Shown piece after piece: positions 3,523 through 61,253 of a DNA stretch of 64,000 nucleotides. A program made the position numbers and the translations under genes. The DNA is from Escherichia coli (GTDB taxonomy: Bacteria; Pseudomonadota; Gammaproteobacteria; Enterobacterales; Enterobacteriaceae). Positions within the stretch are counted from its first letter, which is position 1, and each line of letters opens with the position of its first letter. The notes under the pieces are model-generated. The model was not told where the DNA came from, did not search any database, and worked only from the letters and a program-made list of their open reading frames with translations. The DNA lies in assembly GCF_003018255.1 (NCBI RefSeq), contig NZ_CP027440.1. One strand, written 5' to 3'.

Positions 3523-4189
3523 CCATTTAGCAGGGAATAATAAGAGAGGGAACTCATTTTGAAATCATTATTCAATCGGTTAACGGGAAAAGCGGTTAGC
3601 CGGACAGCTTTCGTCGAACATCTTGGTCATGAAGTTGTACAACATCATCCAAACTGGAAAGTCATGATTTCGACTGACCATAAATTGATGCGCATTGATG
3701 CTCCACCAAACAGCCATTATTGATACGCCTCCGTCGCCTGTTAGGTTTATGGTGTTTTGCCTTGGCGACGCTACGCTTAATCTGTTACTGATTTCTGGTA
3801 CCATGGGGGGAATAATCTGATTTTATTTGATTGCAAATTAACCACTTAAACCTATTGAATGCGGAACATTGTCAGTCGGTTAATTTTGCGTGCTTTAGCA
3901 TTCACATCTTTCCGGACGATGCAGTGAAAATTGCGTAATCCTCAGCAACCGCTGCGTAATGTCGTCTATCTTGTCGCGATCCTGGCATCCCTACATTATT
4001 TGTGGTCTGTGAAGATTATCTCATTGCAGCCCCTCATCTTCGCAGGGCTGGCTTTACAGCTTTTCACCCTACGTTATAAGAAGTTCCGTCGATGATGGCG
4101 CTAATTTCGTGAATTGTGCGGCTTGTTGCAAATTACACGGTGTTGAAGGTTATTTACATGTTAGCTGTTGATTATCTTCCCTGATAAGA

Positions 4190-10693: not shown

Positions 10694-10716
10694 TAGGTGT
10701 CACAAAGGGAGTGACC

Positions 10717-21500: not shown

Positions 21501-22259
21501 ATGAGCCAAATTTTACTGCAACCTGCTAACGCGATGATTACGCTGGAAAACGTCAATAAATGGTATGGGCAATTCCATGTTTTGAAAAATATAAATTTAA
21601 CCGTGCAACCGGGAGAACGGATCGTTCTGTGTGGCCCTTCTGGTTCCGGTAAATCGACAACCATTCGTTGTATTAATCATCTGGAAGAACATCAACAGGG
21701 ACGGATCGTGGTGGATGGCATCGAACTTAATGAAGATATCCGCAATATTGAGCGCGTCAGGCAGGAAGTGGGAATGGTCTTTCAGCATTTCAATCTCTTC
21801 CCTCATCTGACCGTTCTACAGAACTGTACCCTGGCACCGATTTGGGTACGCAAGATGCCTAAGAAAGAGGCTGAAGATCTGGCGTTGCATTACCTTGAGC
21901 GGGTGAGAATTGCCGAACATGCCCAGAAGTTTCCCGGACAGATTTCTGGTGGTCAGCAGCAACGCGTTGCCATTGCGCGTTCGCTGTGTATGAAGCCGAA
22001 AATTATGTTATTTGATGAGCCAACGTCGGCGCTCGATCCTGAGATGGTGAAAGAGGTGCTGGATACGATGATTGGGCTGGCGCAGTCGGGTATGACAATG
22101 CTGTGTGTAACACATGAGATGGGGTTTGCACGAACCGTCGCTGACAGGGTGATTTTTATGGATCGTGGGGAGATAGTGGAACAAGCTGCACCGGATGAGT
22201 TTTTTGCGCATCCTAAATCAGAGCGTACGAGGGCATTTTTATCGCAGGTGATCCATTAA
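21501..22259 (+). CDS. yhdZ: Amino-acid ABC transporter ATP-binding protein
   Basis: 252-aa ORF; Walker [13 protein letters not shown] signature SGGQQQRV. Confidence 0.95.
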
Positions 22260-25686: not shown

Positions 25687-25860
25687 TCACAACCCGAAGA
25701 TGTTTCACTTCAGAGTTGCGAAAATTTGAGAGACTCACGAACAACTTTCGTTGTTCAGTGTTTCAATTTTCAGCTTGATCCAGATTTTTAAAGAGCAAAA
25801 CTTCGCAGTGAACCTTTGCAGGTACACTCTGAAGTATTTTTTATTTAATCACTACAGAGA

Positions 25861-28692: not shown

Positions 28693-28925
28693 TCATCTTC
28701 ACTTTGTTCCTGAATTAAGTTTTCCGCTTCTTCTTCCAGGTCCCAGCGATGCTGACGAAAACTCGCTAACCACTGTTCTGGCGTATCTCCAGTAAAGCGA
28801 TACGCCAGACTCTCGCCAGAGATCGCACATGTCAGTTGCATACCATTCACGAGAGCGGGAAAACATACACATCTTTTATTCTCGTCCCACTCTTCCCTAT
28901 CCGGAAACTGGATGGCCTGATTCAC
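28668..28925 (-). CDS. yrdB: DUF1488 protein YrdB
   Basis: 85-aa acidic ORF; 3' end overlaps yrdA 3' end by 25 nt on the opposite strand. Confidence 0.85.
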
Positions 28926-29740
28926 GCTGACAATTCCTGTTGCAATAGTTTGATGACCGGTTCTACATCAGGCAGAACGCCATGCCAAAGAAGGAAGGCA
29001 TGAGCCGCCTGTGCCACCAGCATTCCTAAACCATCAGCATTACGCTTTGAGCCTCGCTGCTCACACCATGCCAGAAAAGGAGTTTTTCCTTTCTGATAGA
29101 ACATGTCATAGCAATAAATGCCTGGATGAATAAGCGATGACGGGATCGCCGGAATATCACCACTGATGCCACTGGATGTTGCATTAATAATGAGATCAAA
29201 CTCATGACCTTCCAGTTCGTCCATACCCAACGCCTGAATACTGCCAGTGTGCGCAAACAATTTAGCCAACTCTTCCGCGCGGGATACCGTCCGATTAGTG
29301 ATTGTCACCGCACAGTCCAGGGAAAGAAGTGGCAGTAGTACGCCGCGAGAAGCTCCACCAGCGCCGATGAGCAGAATACGTAAACCAGGACGGATAAAAG
29401 ACAGACGTTCCAGATCGCTTAACAAACCTATACCATCGGTATTGTCACCCAGCAGGCGTCCATCTTCTAACCGCTTGAGGGTATTAACAGCACCAGCCAA
29501 CGCTGCCCGTTCAGTAAGCTCATCCGCTCTGGCAAAAGCCTCTTCTTTAAAAGGTACCGTCACATTCGCACCTTTACCACCAGCACTAAAGAAAGCGTTC
29601 AGTGTGTTGATGAAATCATTGATGGGTGCCAACACGCGCCCATAGGGATGTTCAATATTCAGTTGCTGAGCAAATTGCTGATGAATGAATGGCGATTTGC
29701 TGTGGGCTATCGGATTACCAAAAACAGCATAGGTTTCCAT
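28922..29740 (-). CDS. aroE: Shikimate 5-dehydrogenase
   Basis: 272 aa from ATG at 29740 ([20 protein letters not shown]); ORF-track start is a 9-codon upstream extension. Confidence 0.95.
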
Positions 29741-29744
29741 TATG

Positions 29745-30317
29745 TTACCCCTGTCGAAACAGTTCACCCGTCAGGGCATCGCGGATTTCTGAAGGATTTA
29801 AACGCCCCCCCGTTTCACCAGGCACAACCGGGAACGCCGCGCCAAATTGTGCGCGAACTTCGTCTACTGTTCGACAAGGTGGCAATCCACTCAAGTTGGC
29901 ACTGGTAGAAACCAGCGGTTTACCATAAGCCTGGCACAAAGCAACCACCAACGGATGGTCGGTGACTCGTACAGCAAGCGAATCAAAGCGGCCCGTCAAC
30001 CAGCGCGGTGTTGTCGCAGGCGCGGGAAAGACAAAGGTGACAGGACCTGGCCAGCGGGAAAAAATGGTTTCACGCTGCGCATCAGTCAGCATGGTGTCAT
30101 CAATATAGGGTTTAAGCTGCTCGTAATTTGCCGCGATTAAAATCAGCCCCTTATCAACCGGACGCTGTTTTAACTCCAACAGTCGCATCACTGCTGTTTC
30201 GCTATCAGGATCGCACCCGACACCGAAAACGGCTTCCGTTGGATAGGCGATGACACGTTTTTCATTGAGGACATCTATCGCAGCTGCGATAGCGTCTCCT
30301 TGCAGGTTATTATTCAC
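29745..30317 (-). CDS. tsaC: L-threonylcarbamoyladenylate synthase TsaC (YrdC), t6A tRNA modification
   Basis: 190 aa; start reads as GTG (window CAC at 30315-30317) followed by NNNLQ; YrdC/Sua5 fold recognised. Confidence 0.9.
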
Positions 30318-30321
30318 GTTA

Positions 30322-30864
30322 TTATTCCGCCGAAACCGGCTTTCCACATTGTTTACTGGCACAAAAGTGTTTTACACCCTGCGCGGTTTTCTTTTCGATG
30401 AGTAGCGGATAATGACACTCAGGGCATTCTCCAGCTATGGGTTTGAAGTTAATGGCAAATTGACACTCCGGGTAGCGATCACAGGAGTGAAATGTTTTGC
30501 CATAACGGGAACGGCGCTGGACCAGATGGCCCGTCCGACATTGGGGACAGGTAATTGCTGTTTCGTCCGGTTTATCGATAAGTTCGGTATGTTCGCATTC
30601 AGGGTAGTTACTGCAACCAATAAACATACCAAAGCGTCCCTGGCGTAATACCAGATTTGCGCCACATGCAGGGCAAACCTGCCCCTCCAGAACTTTGACA
30701 ATATGTCCATCCGCTGAAGATTTCAGAGGACGGACGTAGTCACACGCCGGATACTGTGAGCATCCAAGAAACGGACCGTGTTTCCCGGATCGAATAACCA
30801 GTTCAGCCCCGCACTTTGGGCAGGACTCATTATTACGCACCGTGAACAGTGCTGATTTCGCCAT
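30322..30864 (-). CDS. yrdD: Topoisomerase-I-type zinc-ribbon DNA-binding protein YrdD
   Basis: 180-aa ORF with four repeated Cys-x2-Cys...Cys-x-Cys zinc-ribbon modules. Confidence 0.9.
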
Positions 30865-30892
30865 AACAACTTATGCTGAATTAAAGAAATGA

Positions 30893-31366
30893 TTAATGCA
30901 GCATACCTTCATTCACTTCAAAGAGTAATTCTTCCATTTGCTGGTACGCATTTTCGCAGCCCGGAATATTGAACAACACCATCAGGATTACCCATTTCAG
31001 GTCTTCCAGGTCGAACTCTGCGGTATCCAGCGCGAGCACTCGCTCTATCACCATTTCACGGGTTTCAAGGTTAAGCACCTGAATTTGCTCAAGGAAAAGC
31101 AGAAAACCACGACAGCTGGCATCCAGCCTTTCACACTCTTCAGGGGTATAAATACGCATGGAGAGTGGATCAGAGGCCAGTTGCATCGGTTCTGCCAGTC
31201 CTTCCTGATAATCCGCAAGCTTTTCCAGCCAAAGCAGGGCATTGTAGATATCTTCTCGATCAAATCCTGCGTCGGTAAGATCCTGTTCAAGTTTGTCTTG
31301 ATCCACACGCAACTCAGCTTCTGTGTGAATATAGGTTTCAAACAAATACATTAGTACGTCGAACAT
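30893..31366 (-). CDS. smg: Smg protein (DUF494)
   Basis: 157-aa acidic ORF recognised from translation. Confidence 0.92.
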
Positions 31367-32462
31367 GGCATGCCCTCCTCAATCGGACATAGCCGCCGGG
31401 TACAGCTGCGATCCATCCTGCTAACTCCAGTTCGAGTAGTTGAGTTACTACCTCTGGCACAGGTTGGCCGGCACGTTCAGCGACGACGTCAACAGGTGTT
31501 ACCTCATCTCCTACGTTAGCCAGGAGCTCAGGAAATGGCAATGCCACGTCTTCCTGATCTGGTGAATAAAATGAATTTTCAGGGGCGTCTGGCAACCAGT
31601 GCAATCCAAATTGCAAGTTTTCCAGAATTTCTTCCGGTTCCGTCACAAGAATCGCACCTTGTTTTATTAACCAGTGAGGCCCTTCGCTTCCCGGATTCCC
31701 TAATGGACCCGGCAAGGCAAAAACTTCACGCCCCTGCTCAAGCGCACAACGTGCTGTCACCAGCGAACCACTGCGCAAAGCCGCTTCCACCACCAGTACA
31801 CCTTTACTTAGACCACTGATAATGCGATTTCTTCGTGGGAAATTGTAAGCAAGGGGTGGAACATCGAGGGGAAATTCCGAGACAAGAGCACCACCATGTT
31901 CAAGCAAACTGGTAGCCAGTCGGGCATGGCGACGCGGATGAATGGTATTAAGTCCATTCCCCAATACAGCAATGCTGACGCCATTTACCTGTAAGGCCGC
32001 TTTATGCGCCACACCATCGATTCCACGCGCCAGTCCACTCGTAATTGTCACTCCACGCGTCGCCAGAGTTTCGCAAAATAATCGTCCCCATCGCTCGCCA
32101 TACCATGAATGCGCCCGACTCCCCACTACGGCAAGCTGAAATGAATGCAGCGCGTGCAGTTCTCCTTCAACAAACAGTGCGCCGGGGTAATCTGTCGTCG
32201 CAAGAAGTTGAGGAGGATAAAATTCGCTGTCCGCAGGAATTAAATGATGGTTGGGTTGCTCCAACCAAGAAAGTGAGCTTTCGATACTCTTTCGCGGAAA
32301 TGAAAGAAAGCGTTGTGCCTGCCGCAATGTAAGCCCAGTTTGCTGCAATACAACCGCATCAATATTCGACTGTTTTGCCAGCCAGTGAGCTATACGGACC
32401 ATATCATCGCCGTACAAGCTGCTGATGCTCATTAAACGCAGCCAAATTTCTGTATCGACCAT
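31338..32462 (-). CDS. dprA: DNA processing protein DprA (Smf)
   Basis: 374-aa ORF; Rossmann-like DprA domain; 3' end overlaps smg start by 29 nt. Confidence 0.95.
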
Positions 32463-32591
32463 CCTTATCTCCCTGCCATAAGCAGCCTTAGCAATCTTTG
32501 CGATTGGTCAGTGATGCTGTCAATCAGAGGGGGATTTGTCTAGAATAGAAGAAATAATCTTTCTAACTCCTGAACACATCTCTGGAGATTT

Positions 32592-33101
32592 ATGTCAGTT
32601 TTGCAAGTGTTACATATTCCGGACGAGCGGCTTCGCAAAGTTGCTAAACCGGTAGAAGAAGTGAATGCAGAAATTCAGCGTATCGTCGATGATATGTTCG
32701 AGACGATGTACGCAGAAGAAGGTATTGGCCTGGCGGCAACCCAGGTCGATATCCATCAACGTATCATTGTTATTGATGTTTCGGAAAACCGTGACGAACG
32801 GCTGGTGTTAATCAATCCGGAGCTTTTAGAAAAAAGCGGCGAAACAGGCATTGAAGAAGGATGCCTGTCGATCCCTGAACAACGTGCTTTAGTGCCACGC
32901 GCAGAGAAAGTTAAAATTCGCGCCCTGGACCGCGACGGTAAACCATTTGAACTGGAAGCAGAGGGTCTGTTAGCCATCTGTATTCAGCATGAGATGGATC
33001 ACTTGGTCGGCAAACTGTTTATGGATTATCTGTCACCGCTGAAACAACAACGTATTCGTCAGAAAGTTGAAAAACTGGATCGTCTGAAAGCCCGGGCTTA
33101 A
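32592..33101 (+). CDS. def: Peptide deformylase
   Basis: 169-aa ORF; metal-binding motifs EGCLS and HEMDH. Confidence 0.98.
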
Positions 33102-33115
33102 GGATAAGAACTAAC

Positions 33116-34063
33116 GTGTCAGAATCACTACGTATTATTTTTGCGGGTACACCTGACTTTGCAGCGCGTCATCTCGACGCGCTGTTGTCTTCTGGTCATA
33201 ACGTCGTTGGCGTGTTCACCCAGCCAGACCGACCGGCAGGACGCGGTAAAAAACTGATGCCCAGCCCGGTTAAAGTTCTGGCTGAGGAAAAAGGTCTGCC
33301 CGTTTTTCAACCGGTTTCCCTGCGTCCACAAGAAAACCAGCAACTGGTCGCCGATCTACAGGCTGATGTTATGGTTGTCGTCGCCTATGGCTTAATTCTG
33401 CCTAAAGCAGTGCTGGAGATGCCGCGTCTTGGCTGTATCAACGTTCATGGTTCACTGCTGCCACGCTGGCGCGGTGCTGCACCAATCCAACGCTCACTAT
33501 GGGCGGGTGATGCAGAAACTGGTGTGACCATTATGCAAATGGATGTTGGTTTAGACACCGGAGACATGCTCTATAAGCTCTCCTGCCCGATTACTGCAGA
33601 AGATACCAGTGGTACGCTGTACGACAAGCTGGCAGAGCTTGGCCCACAAGGGCTTATCACCACGTTGAAACAATTGGCAGACGGCACGGCGAAACCAGAA
33701 GTTCAGGACGAAACTCTTGTCACTTACGCCGAGAAGTTGAGTAAAGAAGAAGCGCGTATTGACTGGTCACTTTCGGCAGCACAGCTTGAACGCTGCATTC
33801 GCGCTTTCAATCCATGGCCAATGAGCTGGCTGGAAATTGAAGGACAGCCGGTTAAAGTCTGGAAAGCATCGGTCATTGATACGGCAACCAACGCTGCACC
33901 AGGAACGATCCTTGAAGCCAACAAACAAGGCATTCAGGTTGCGACTGGTGATGGCATCCTGAACCTGCTCTCGTTACAACCTGCGGGTAAGAAAGCGATG
34001 AGCGCGCAAGACCTCCTGAACTCTCGTCGGGAATGGTTTGTTCCGGGCAACCGTCTGGTCTGA
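33116..34063 (+). CDS. fmt: Methionyl-tRNA formyltransferase
   Basis: 315-aa ORF ([20 protein letters not shown]); start codon reads GTG. Confidence 0.97.
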
Positions 34064-34108
34064 TAGTCCACTCTTCTAAGCCCGGTCTTGCCGGGCATTT
34101 TTATACTT

Positions 34109-35398
34109 ATGAAAAAACAACGTAATTTACGTAGCATGGCGGCCCAGGCCGTTGAACAAGTCGTCGAGCAAGGGCAATCATTAAGCAACATTCTGCCACC
34201 GCTCCAGCAAAAAGTTTCCGATAAAGACAAAGCACTTCTTCAAGAGTTGTGCTTTGGCGTACTGCGTACGCTTTCGCAGTTAAACTGGCTGATTAATAAG
34301 TTAATGGCCCGTCCGATGACCGGCAAACAGCGGACCGTGCATTACCTGATTATGGTTGGTTTGTATCAACTGCTTTATACCCGCATACCACCTCATGCTG
34401 CGCTGGCTGAAACGGTTGAAGGCGCTATCGCAATTAAGCGCCCGCAACTTAAAGGGTTGATAAACGGTGTATTACGCCAGTTCCAGCGTCAGCAAGAAGA
34501 GTTATTAGCCGAGTTTAATGCCAGTGATGCACGTTATCTGCATCCTTCCTGGTTGCTGAAGCGTCTGCAAAAAGCGTATCCAGAGCAGTGGCAATCCATC
34601 GTCGAAGCCAATAACCAGCGTCCGCCAATGTGGCTGCGCGTTAATCGTACGCATCATTCCCGCGACAGCTGGCTTGCATTGCTGGATGAAGCAGGAATGA
34701 AAGGTTTCCCGCCTGCGGATTACCCTGATGCTGTACGTCTGGAAACACCTGCACCTGTTCATGCGCTACCTGGTTTTGAAGACGGATGGGTTACCGTTCA
34801 GGATGCCTCAGCACAAGGTTGCATGACCTGGCTTGCGCCACAAAACGGTGAACACATTTTGGATCTTTGTGCCGCCCCCGGCGGTAAAACAACGCATATC
34901 CTTGAGGTGGCACCAGAAGCGCAGGTTGTTGCGGTTGATATTGACGAACAGCGCCTCTCTCGCGTTTACGACAATTTAAAACGCCTTGGTATGAAGGCAA
35001 CCGTGAAACAAGGTGATGGCCGCTACCCTTCCCAATGGTGTGGCGAGCAACAGTTTGATCGCATTTTATTAGATGCGCCTTGTTCAGCAACCGGTGTGAT
35101 TCGTCGCCATCCGGATATTAAATGGTTACGTCGCGATCGCGATATCCCGGAACTCGCGCAATTGCAGTCTGAAATTCTCGACGCCATTTGGCCGCATTTA
35201 AAATCCGGTGGAACCCTGGTCTATGCCACCTGTTCGGTGTTACCGGAAGAGAATAGCCTGCAGATTAAAGCCTTTTTGCAACGTACCGCTGATGCCGAAC
35301 TTTGCGAAACAGGAACACCAGAGCAACCGGGTAAACAAAATCTGCCTGGTGCCGAAGAGGGCGACGGCTTCTTTTACGCTAAGCTAATCAAAAAGTGA
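34109..35398 (+). CDS. rsmB: 16S rRNA m5C967 methyltransferase RsmB (Sun)
   Basis: 429 aa from ATG 34109 ([13 protein letters not shown]); NusB-like N-domain plus SAM methyltransferase; ORF-track start 34088 is an upstream extension. Confidence 0.95.
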
Positions 35399-35419
35399 TG
35401 AGATAACGGGTCGCGACTG

Positions 35420-36796
35420 ATGAAAATTATCATTCTGGGTGCCGGCCAGGTTGGCGGCACACTGGCGGAAAACCTGGTTGGCGAGAACAACGATATTACT
35501 GTTGTCGATACCAACGGTGAGCGTCTGCGGACCTTGCAGGATAAATTTGACCTGCGAGTCGTGCAGGGGCATGGCTCTCATCCACGCGTATTGCGGGAGG
35601 CAGGTGCCGACGACGCCGATATGCTGGTTGCTGTAACTAGTTCAGATGAAACCAATATGGTTGCCTGCCAGGTAGCCTACTCACTTTTCAACACCCCTAA
35701 TCGCATCGCTCGTATCCGCTCACCAGACTACGTGCGCGATGCCGATAAACTATTTCATTCAGATGCTGTACCGATTGATCATCTGATCGCACCAGAGCAG
35801 TTGGTTATCGATAATATTTACCGACTGATTGAGTATCCCGGCGCATTGCAGGTGGTGAACTTCGCTGAGGGTAAAGTCAGCCTGGCTGTGGTTAAAGCCT
35901 ATTATGGCGGCCCGCTGATTGGTAATGCACTTTCGACCATGCGCGAACATATGCCCCATATCGATACTCGTGTGGCAGCAATTTTCCGCCACGATCGCCC
36001 CATTCGTCCGCAAGGTTCGACCATTGTTGAAGCTGGTGATGAAGTGTTCTTTATTGCCGCTTCACAGCATATCCGCGCGGTGATGAGTGAATTACAGCGA
36101 CTGGAAAAACCGTATAAGCGGATCATGCTGGTTGGCGGCGGTAATATCGGTGCAGGGCTGGCGCGTCGTCTGGAAAAAGATTACAGCGTTAAACTCATCG
36201 AACGTAATCAGCAGCGCGCTGCCGAACTGGCGGAAAAGTTGCAGAATACGATCGTCTTTTTTGGTGATGCGTCGGATCAAGAACTGCTGGCCGAAGAACA
36301 TATCGATCAAGTTGATCTGTTTATTGCTGTCACCAACGATGACGAAGCCAATATCATGTCCGCCATGCTTGCCAAACGTATGGGTGCGAAAAAGGTGATG
36401 GTATTGATCCAGCGTCGCGCTTATGTGGATCTGGTTCAGGGGAGCGTGATCGATATTGCGATTTCACCGCAACAAGCAACTATTTCTGCGTTGCTTAGCC
36501 ATGTGCGAAAAGCTGATATTGTTGGTGTTTCCTCACTGCGCCGCGGCGTAGCAGAAGCTATTGAAGCCGTTGCTCACGGTGATGAAAGCACCTCACGCGT
36601 TGTCGGCAGAGTCATTGATGAAATCAAGCTACCGCCAGGAACGATTATTGGAGCGGTGGTACGTGGAAACGACGTGATGATTGCCAATGACAATCTGCGC
36701 ATTGAGCAAGGCGATCACGTAATTATGTTCCTCACAGATAAAAAGTTTATTACCGACGTCGAAAGACTCTTCCAGCCAAGTCCTTTCTTCTTGTAA
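35420..36796 (+). CDS. trkA: Potassium uptake system NAD-binding protein TrkA
   Basis: 458-aa ORF with duplicated Rossmann GxGxxG ([19 protein letters not shown]). Confidence 0.97.
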
Positions 36797-41016: not shown

Positions 41017-42999
<1,983 letters not shown>

Positions 43000-54300: not shown

Positions 54301-54479
54301 AGAACTTCCTGTTTTAATTATTGATTATCCTTAATCATAAAAATAATGTATGCATTTATTAATTAAATACATATTACTAATATAAATAAATTTTGCTTGA
54401 TTCATGCAAGCGGCATTAATACTATTTATACTAACGTCAATATACAACCCACCCAATCTATTTTATTAGAACATACATC

Positions 54480-55295
54480 GTGCCCACACTACGCTTCCCC
54501 TTCCATCTGGCGAATCATAATAAAGATGCTGCCATCAATATATTGATTATATTTATAAGCATAGGGTTGATTATTTTTAATGTGAATTATTTCCATACAA
54601 CTATAGTTAAAAATGGACAGATCATTAATCAACCAACAAACGCATTTCAGTCTGAGTTCAGCCTTGCCGCTTTATGGCGTAACGAAAATCATGCTGGGGT
54701 AAAAGATGCAAATCCCGTGGCAGTTAATCAGGAAACACCTAAGCTCTCTATAGCGCTTAATGGCATTGTACTCACATCGAATGATGAGACTTCTTTTGTC
54801 TTAATTAATGAGGGGAGCGAACAAAAGCGATACTCCCTCAACGAAGCCCTTGAGTCAGCGCCGGGAACGTTTATTAGAAAAATAAATAAAACCAGCGTTG
54901 TGTTTGAAACTCACGGGCATTACGAAAAAGTAACTCTCCATCCAGGGCTACCTGACATCATCAAGCAGCCTGATTCAGAAAGTCAAAATGTACTCGCTGA
55001 TTATATTATCGCCACGCCGATACGTGATGGAGAACAGATATACGGGCTTCGATTGAACCCTCGTAAGGGCCTCAATGCATTTACCACCAGCTTGCTACAA
55101 CCAGGGGATATCGCCCTCAGGATCAATAATCTTTCGCTGACCCACCCTGATGAGGTTTCACAGGCATTAAGTTTACTGCTAACTCAACAAAGTGCTCAGT
55201 TTACAATTCGTCGCAACGGCGTACCCCGCTTGATAAATGTTTCCGTCGCGGAACTTACAGGAATGAATGGACAGCGTCATGAAAGGACTCAATAA
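54480..55295 (+). CDS. gspC: Type II secretion system protein C
   Basis: 271-aa ORF with N-terminal TM anchor; start codon reads GTG. Confidence 0.9.
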
Positions 55296-60879: not shown

Positions 60880-61253
60880 ACAAACAATCAGGGATGACAC
60901 TGCTTGAAGTCTTACTGGCGATGAGTATTTTCGCCACTGTTGCGCTGGCTTTAATGAGCAGCATGCAAGGGCAACGAAATGCCATCGAGCGGATGCGTAA
61001 TGAGACGCTGGCGCTGTGGATCGCAGATAACCAGCTTAAGTCGCAAGATACATTCAACGATGAAAACACGTCCAGTTCAGGCAAAGAGATAATTAATGGC
61101 GAAGAGTGGAACTGGCGCAGCGATGTCCATTCAAGCAAAGACGGCACGCTTCTGGAACGCACCATAACGGTGACGTTACCCAACGGTCAGAAAACCGCTC
61201 TGACTCGTTATCAGAGCATCCATGATAGATCCGGGCAGGCGCAAGATGATTAA
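60876..61253 (+). CDS. gspI: Type II secretion minor pseudopilin I
   Basis: 125 aa from ATG 60876 ([17 protein letters not shown]); overlaps gspH stop by 4 nt. Confidence 0.92.

Follow-up and report, generated by a model that had tools for sequence, protein, structure and literature searches.

Five genes in the Escherichia coli window, the 64,000-nt stretch of DNA analysed here, begin with GTG, namely yrdB, tsaC, fmt, rpsM and gspC (Table 1). With a probability of about 0.93 these are genuine GUG initiation codons, lying in contexts that explain how the weaker codon functions. The in-frame GTG codons upstream of tsaC are almost certainly not used, and the annotated downstream ATG is the likely start of yhdJ, yhdY and gspL. 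The five starts represent ordinary, already-known biology: they match the K-12 reference and textbook initiation, and nothing about them is new. The start of tsaC rests on experiment, as do less directly those of fmt and rpsM, and the starts of gspC and yrdB are proposed from comparison only.

Table 1. Start codons, alternative in-frame start codons and associated elements in the window
Feature	Position	Strand	Description
yrdB start GTG	28923-28925	-	overlaps the aroE stop codon as GTGA
tsaC start GTG	30315-30317	-	reads CAC on the plus strand; first codon of the tsaC CDS
tsaC CDS	29745-30317	-	190 aa; L-threonylcarbamoyladenylate synthase
yrdD tandem stops	30319-30324	-	yrdD stop TAA (30322-30324), lying 4 nt before the tsaC GTG and followed by another in-frame TAA; sequence ...GAATAATAACGTG
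In-frame GTG codons upstream of tsaC	30345-30362	-	GTG 30347 and GTG 30362, 10 and 15 codons upstream of the tsaC start, inside yrdD; would give 200 or 205 aa
fmt start GTG	33116-33118	+	14 nt past the def stop; AAGGA motif in the intervening sequence
rpsM (ribosomal protein S13) start GTG	41371-41373	-	only candidate for a start within its ORF
Alpha-operon leader (S4-binding pseudoknot, Rfam RF00140 Alpha_RBS)	41341-41452	-	includes the rpsM Shine-Dalgarno motif and GTG; consensus AGGAGUGcaUAgUGGCCCGUAU
gspC start GTG	54480-54482	+	first gene of the gspC-O operon
yhdJ alternative GTG	10711-10713	+	two codons upstream of the annotated ATG 10717; overlaps the GGGAG Shine-Dalgarno motif
yhdY alternative ATG	20387-20389	+	one codon upstream of the annotated ATG 20390; context taaggagtcATGATG
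gspL alternative GTG	62821-62823	+	one codon upstream of the annotated ATG 62824; context ataaggatcGTGATG
panF alternative ATG	6665		two codons upstream of the annotated ATG
yrdA alternative GTG	28132		two codons upstream of the annotated ATG
gspD alternative ATG	55267		four codons upstream of the annotated ATG
accC alternative CTG	4984		codon 2; same alternative codon as in K-12
def alternative TTG	32601		codon 4; same alternative codon as in K-12
rpoA alternative GTG	39917-39919		codon 5; same alternative codon as in K-12
rpsD alternative TTG	40563-40565		codon 5; same alternative codon as in K-12
rpsH alternative ATG	45439-45441		codon 3; same alternative codon as in K-12

Genomic context of the window

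The window comprises the E. coli chromosome segment from mreB to gspM, with the order mreB-accBC-fis-acrEF-rrnD-aroE-tsaC-def-fmt-(alpha, spc and S10 ribosomal operons)-gsp, and is the counterpart of the region 3.40-3.465 Mb of K-12. Its whole length aligns to positions 4023338-4087337 of the record of strain JNE23-011, the differences being scattered substitutions and a mismatch block in the rRNA operon, and the two sequences are 100% identical over 29000-35500. A 6.5-kb piece around the tsaC start has matches in 5425 of 5426 complete E. coli genomes. Reference starts were taken from the PGAP annotation of the near-identical strain JNE23-011 and from the curated K-12 record NC_000913.3, and the N-terminal and initiation evidence comes from K-12, not from the strain of the window.

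The substitutions relative to JNE23-011 cluster at 10800-22000 (yhdJ-yhdZ) and 61000-62300 (gspJ/gspK), a distribution which suggests patches of recombination. In the rRNA operon, at 22-26 kb, the mismatches are dense, probably because minor differences in length put the base-by-base comparison out of register. An Rfam match to StyR-44 (106.9 bits; 25694-25793, minus strand), a known rRNA-operon spacer element, directly precedes the 23S rRNA gene of the rrnD operon. The yhdW gene (18106-19131, plus strand) is intact in the window, where it encodes 341 aa, and is a pseudogene in K-12. A pseudogene remnant between acuI/yhdH and accB (3708-4095, plus strand) is present in both strains, being YedZ-like in the window and yrdE/yrdF in K-12.

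Start codons of the annotated genes

According to the PGAP annotation of the near-identical strain, the window contains 74 complete CDS, 69 of which start with ATG, five with GTG and none with TTG. The initial annotation, which was made from the sequence, had listed the GTG starts of tsaC, fmt, rpsM and gspC as mainly a caution for annotation and had proposed a comparison with reference start sites. All four codons lie where it had placed them, and identical GTG starts are used by both PGAP and K-12 NC_000913.3, so that no correction of the region is needed. Its list was incomplete, as it omitted the GTG start of yrdB and the alternative starts at panF, yrdA, gspD and tsaC. In K-12 MG1655 the corresponding genes yrdB (b3280), tsaC (b3282), fmt (b3288), rpsM (b3298) and gspC (b3324) have the same gene order, CDS lengths, start positions and GTG codons as in the window, and the contexts of the five starts are near-identical, differing only by strain-level substitutions.

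According to Hecht et al. (preprint), GTG is the initiation codon of about 14% of the genes of E. coli. At this rate 10.4 GTG starts would be expected among the 74 CDS, against the five (6.8%) observed (P(X>=5)=0.98; P(X<=5)=0.04), and an enrichment of GTG starts in the window is thus rejected. The shortfall is explained by the block of 28 ribosomal-protein genes, which holds a single GTG start; the frequency in the other genes is 4 of 46 (P(X<=4)=0.21).

Initiation contexts of the GTG starts

In all five genes the GTG aligns with the N-termini of the orthologues, as seen in the species sets for tsaC, fmt and yrdB, in the homologues of gspC and in the N-termini of S13. The ORFs of yrdB, fmt, rpsM and gspC contain no ATG, GTG or TTG upstream of the assigned codon and none within the next 10 codons, the GTG of fmt being the first possible start in its frame. 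The predicted Shine-Dalgarno duplexes of yrdB, tsaC, fmt and rpsM have free energies from -4.3 to -6.8 kcal/mol, and each of these four starts has a Shine-Dalgarno motif or an adjacent upstream stop codon, the stops lying anywhere from overlap to 14 nt away. N-terminal peptides of Fmt, S13 and YrdB were not found in the K-12 N-terminomics dataset.

At these codons GUG would be read by the initiator fMet-tRNA in the same way as AUG, presumably somewhat less efficiently. The yrdB, tsaC and fmt genes are internal operon genes, where ribosomes ending translation of the upstream gene could restart on the downstream one, that is, by translational coupling. Their arrangement resembles that of coupled gene pairs of the ATGA/GTGA type: aroE and yrdB share a GTGA, yrdD and tsaC are separated by 4 nt, and def and fmt by 14 nt. 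Between yrdD and tsaC the closeness of stop and start is retained in 80 species.

The tsaC and fmt genes

The strongest evidence concerns tsaC. In a 2026 N-terminomics study of K-12 (Table S1, PMC13245402) the peptide MNNNLQR, corresponding to TsaC residues 1-7, was assigned to a GTG start at NC_000913:3431413-3431415, which was classified as 'dbTIS' and had Ribo-RET and INRI-seq support. The peptide shows that the tsaC GTG is decoded as methionine, and the N-terminal proteomics and initiation profiling proposed in the initial annotation as a check therefore place the tsaC start at its GTG. Residue 7 of TsaC is Gly in the window and Arg in K-12. The E. coli YrdC/TsaC structures PDB 1HRU and 2MX1 align from residue 1/2 of the ORF; PDB sequences, here and for the genes below, are supplied by depositors and partly follow annotation, and are weak evidence for starts.

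In the strain of the window yrdD ends with TAA TAA, followed by a C and then by the tsaC GTG. The GGCGGA motif upstream of the GTG forms a duplex of modest stability with the anti-Shine-Dalgarno sequence (-5.0 kcal/mol), and re-initiation by ribosomes that have just completed yrdD would be the likely mechanism of tsaC translation. The yrdD stop is located between -7 and +8 of the tsaC GTG in all 80 species compared.

A 12-nt tandem duplication, AATAATAACGTG and AATAATAACCTG (30303-30326, minus strand), extends across the start of tsaC, the three Asn codons after the GTG repeating the tandem yrdD stops and the spacer in front of it. The duplication was found in only five Escherichia loci (L003-L007), the other genera having no upstream copy, and the repeat was set aside as a functional element and is regarded as a lineage-specific duplication.

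The formyltransferase gene fmt is located downstream of def. The E. coli formyltransferase chains in PDB entries 1FMT and 2FMT begin with SESLRIIF, which is residue 2 onwards of the fmt ORF and fits the removal of the initiator methionine. A literature search on fmt and GUG returned no direct statement. In the original cloning of fmt, described by Guillon and colleagues in J Bacteriol in 1992, the N-terminus was reportedly determined.

The 55-mer spanning the def-fmt junction also matches 95 plasmid places in E. coli assemblies, and part of def-fmt (32463-34108) is present in 879 PLSDB plasmids, mostly of Klebsiella and Escherichia, at 95-99% identity. These matches agree with a published finding that the deformylase genes carried by plasmids are in most cases identical to the chromosomal def of E. 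coli (PMC12690207).

Conservation of the fmt and tsaC start codons

Conservation was assessed in a set of 80 species, all of a single family, Enterobacteriaceae, whose loci were fetched with the TsaC protein. The codon aligned with TsaC residue 1 is GTG in 80 of 80 species, and the fmt start is GTG in 76 of 76. Among the 5426 complete E. coli genomes the GTG version of the 55-mer centred on the tsaC start occurs in 5425, as does that of the fmt-start 55-mer, and the ATG version of either occurs in none. In the species set the first base of both start codons is 100% G, compared with a majority base in 44-72% of species at neighbouring variable positions and 51% G at the yrdB start.

The invariance of these codons suggests that ATG is selected against, perhaps in order to set expression relative to the operon partners. 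On this reading the GTG codons would be more than neutral variants: selection would keep them for tuning or regulation, for example because low or IF3-sensitive initiation adjusts the amounts of the formyltransferase and of the t6A enzyme to those of their operon partners. The fixed G at the fmt and tsaC starts, as opposed to the free alternation of ATG and GTG at yrdB within the same loci, and the lack of any ATG variant at either start among the 5426 E. coli genomes are in favour of such a role. However, in 51 of the 80 species the G of the tsaC start falls within the overlapping end of yrdD and is under an additional constraint, conservation in itself reveals no regulatory mechanism, and the sampled species all belong to one family. 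We regard this reading as doubtful.

Still less likely, by analogy with known systems, would be a weak start codon that itself is the selected control point, with formyltransferase synthesis responding, for example, to the condition of the initiation machinery (IF3 or fMet-tRNA), as infC uses AUU. Start-codon autoregulation is represented by infC (AUU) and rpsT (UUG), and for the latter a weak start codon is believed to play the central part in autoregulation (PMC10931766). The fmt, rpsM and tsaC genes are likewise genes of the translation apparatus with a non-AUG start. Unlike the AUU of infC, GUG is a common start codon, and nothing here points to the GUG of fmt, tsaC or rpsM as a sensor.

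The yrdB and rpsM genes

Unlike those of fmt and tsaC, the start codon of yrdB varies among species, being GTG in 40, ATG in 38 and TTG in one of the 79 compared; within E. coli it is ATG in 2 of 5426 genomes. The exchange of GTG, ATG and TTG at a fixed site, followed by the conserved MNQAIQ, makes good comparative evidence for the start, and together with the GTGA overlap with the aroE stop it gives good grounds to mark this GTG as the probable initiation codon of yrdB. The solved homologue 2GPI starts with MNQSIIF, which aligns with MNQAIQF of yrdB.

The GTG of rpsM is preceded by a strong AGGAG Shine-Dalgarno motif (-6.8 kcal/mol). In hundreds of ribosome structures the S13 chain starts with MARIAG or ARIAG, and the rpsM-start 55-mer has GTG in 5425 of 5426 E. 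coli genomes, with the ATG variant in none.

The Shine-Dalgarno motif and the start codon of rpsM are parts of the alpha-operon leader. The leader matches the Rfam model over its full length (positions 1-110 of 110), scoring 102.7 bits where the gathering score is 38, and precedes rpsM-rpsK-rpsD-rpoA-rplQ, the gene order described for the S4-alpha operon. Protein S4 represses the alpha operon through the leader pseudoknot by trapping the 30S subunit (PMC3616713, PMC10931766), and the leader in the window has the same location and gene order as the known S4-alpha operator and no detectable difference from it. The strong Shine-Dalgarno motif and the S4-repressed pseudoknot leader would form the context in which rpsM starts from GTG. 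Of 120 metagenomic loci that encode ARIAGINIP, the start codon is ATG in 109 and GTG in 11, and the S4 leader was found both with GTG (L117, L118, L187 and L200) and with ATG (L192, L189, L162 and L199). Since the leader occurs with either codon, the idea that GTG is obligatory in it is rejected, and the GTG of rpsM is a lineage trait and not a requirement of the operator.

The gspC gene

Among the five starts gspC presents the weakest case. It is preceded by a 179-nt A/T-rich intergenic region, no Shine-Dalgarno motif was found upstream of its GTG (duplex free energy +0.2), and the start has neither a Shine-Dalgarno motif nor coupling to an upstream gene. The K-12 record labels the whole gsp system as cryptic, and the A/T-rich leader of an operon so labelled fits weak, Shine-Dalgarno-independent initiation, which would be the mode of translation of gspC. 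Because initiation on leaders of this kind is possible in the absence of a Shine-Dalgarno motif, the poor context reduces the confidence in the start but is compatible with it. The gene is missing from the K-12 N-terminomics table, and the INRI-seq supplement contains only an out-of-frame internal ATG for it. This ATG, detected in vitro, lies about 100 nt into K-12 gspC, where the window (about 54580-54585, plus strand) reads ATGTGA, a start followed by a stop. A PDB search for GspC yielded only distant homologues that lack the N-terminus and have no bearing on the start.

A mis-called start, the true one being a downstream TTG or GTG (codons 21, 29 or 35) or an upstream near-cognate codon, would accord with this poor context, with the lack of experimental support for GTG 54480 in the N-terminomics table and the INRI-seq supplement, and with the shorter products, of 245-263 aa, that gene callers predict for some gspC homologues. 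It is nevertheless improbable. From the in-frame stop upstream as far as the N-terminal membrane helix, GTG 54480 is the sole ATG, GTG or TTG, and the next in-frame candidates fall within this predicted helix, so that their use would truncate the membrane anchor. Moreover, a divergent Escherichia homologue (75-76% identity) keeps the same GTG in the same context, an ATG occupies the aligned position in a homologue at 42-46% identity, and both PGAP and K-12 annotate gspC at this codon. Judged by these comparisons, gspC very probably starts at GTG 54480.

Only 3112 of the 5426 E. coli genomes contain the 55-mer around the gspC start (54453-54507), compared with 5425 for tsaC, fmt and rpsM, which indicates that the gsp locus is absent or divergent in many strains.

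Alternative in-frame start codons

The initial annotation had also described in-frame alternatives one or two codons upstream of the yhdJ, yhdY and gspL starts, and all three are present as described (Table 1). PGAP and K-12 both take the downstream ATG for these genes, and the K-12 N-terminomics dataset contains no peptides for any of them. For yhdJ the free energy of the Shine-Dalgarno duplex is -7.9 with the ATG and -3.7 with the GTG. In yhdY the spacing from AGGAG is 2 nt to the upstream ATG and 5 nt to the annotated one, and in gspL the spacing from AAGGA is likewise 2 nt to the GTG and 5 nt to the ATG. Since the upstream alternative either overlaps the Shine-Dalgarno motif or sits no more than 2 nt from its end, the annotated downstream ATG, with a spacing of about 5 nt, is the likely start of yhdJ, yhdY and gspL, as judged from spacing and from the agreement between the annotations.

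The annotated ATG of yrdA is confirmed by two K-12 peptides, MSDVLRPYR and SDVLRPYR (PMC13245402). The same study reported minor alternative initiation sites downstream of the annotated starts of def, rpoA, rpsD, rpsH and accC, those of def and rpsH also with Ribo-RET support, and the window contains the same alternative codons.

Since its longest ORF begins 15 codons upstream, within yrdD, tsaC is the only gene of the five whose start is formally ambiguous. That translation truly begins at GTG 30347 or 30362, with GTG 30317 as an internal valine codon, is extremely improbable, as the length of the ORF from 30362 (205 aa) and the Shine-Dalgarno-like duplex at that codon (-4.1 kcal/mol) are opposed by the K-12 N-terminal peptide, which begins with Met at the codon equivalent to 30317 and has Ribo-RET and INRI support, by the upstream sequence, which follows the yrdD frame, and by the upstream tsaC frame, which is not kept among species, 20 of the 80 having no in-frame upstream start and six having spacer lengths that shift the frame. 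An extension of TsaC to 200 or 205 aa is rejected by the MNNNLQR peptide together with the frame breaks in other species. The peptide, the GTG in 80 of 80 species, the unkept upstream frame and the 55-mer settle the start of tsaC at GTG 30317.

Significance of the GTG starts

The relevance of these results is largely one of quality control: the starts read from the raw sequence are correct, and the annotation of the region can stand as it is. The strict, family-wide retention of GTG at fmt and tsaC, next to the drifting start codon of yrdB, is mildly interesting and hints at selection on start-codon strength in Enterobacteriaceae.
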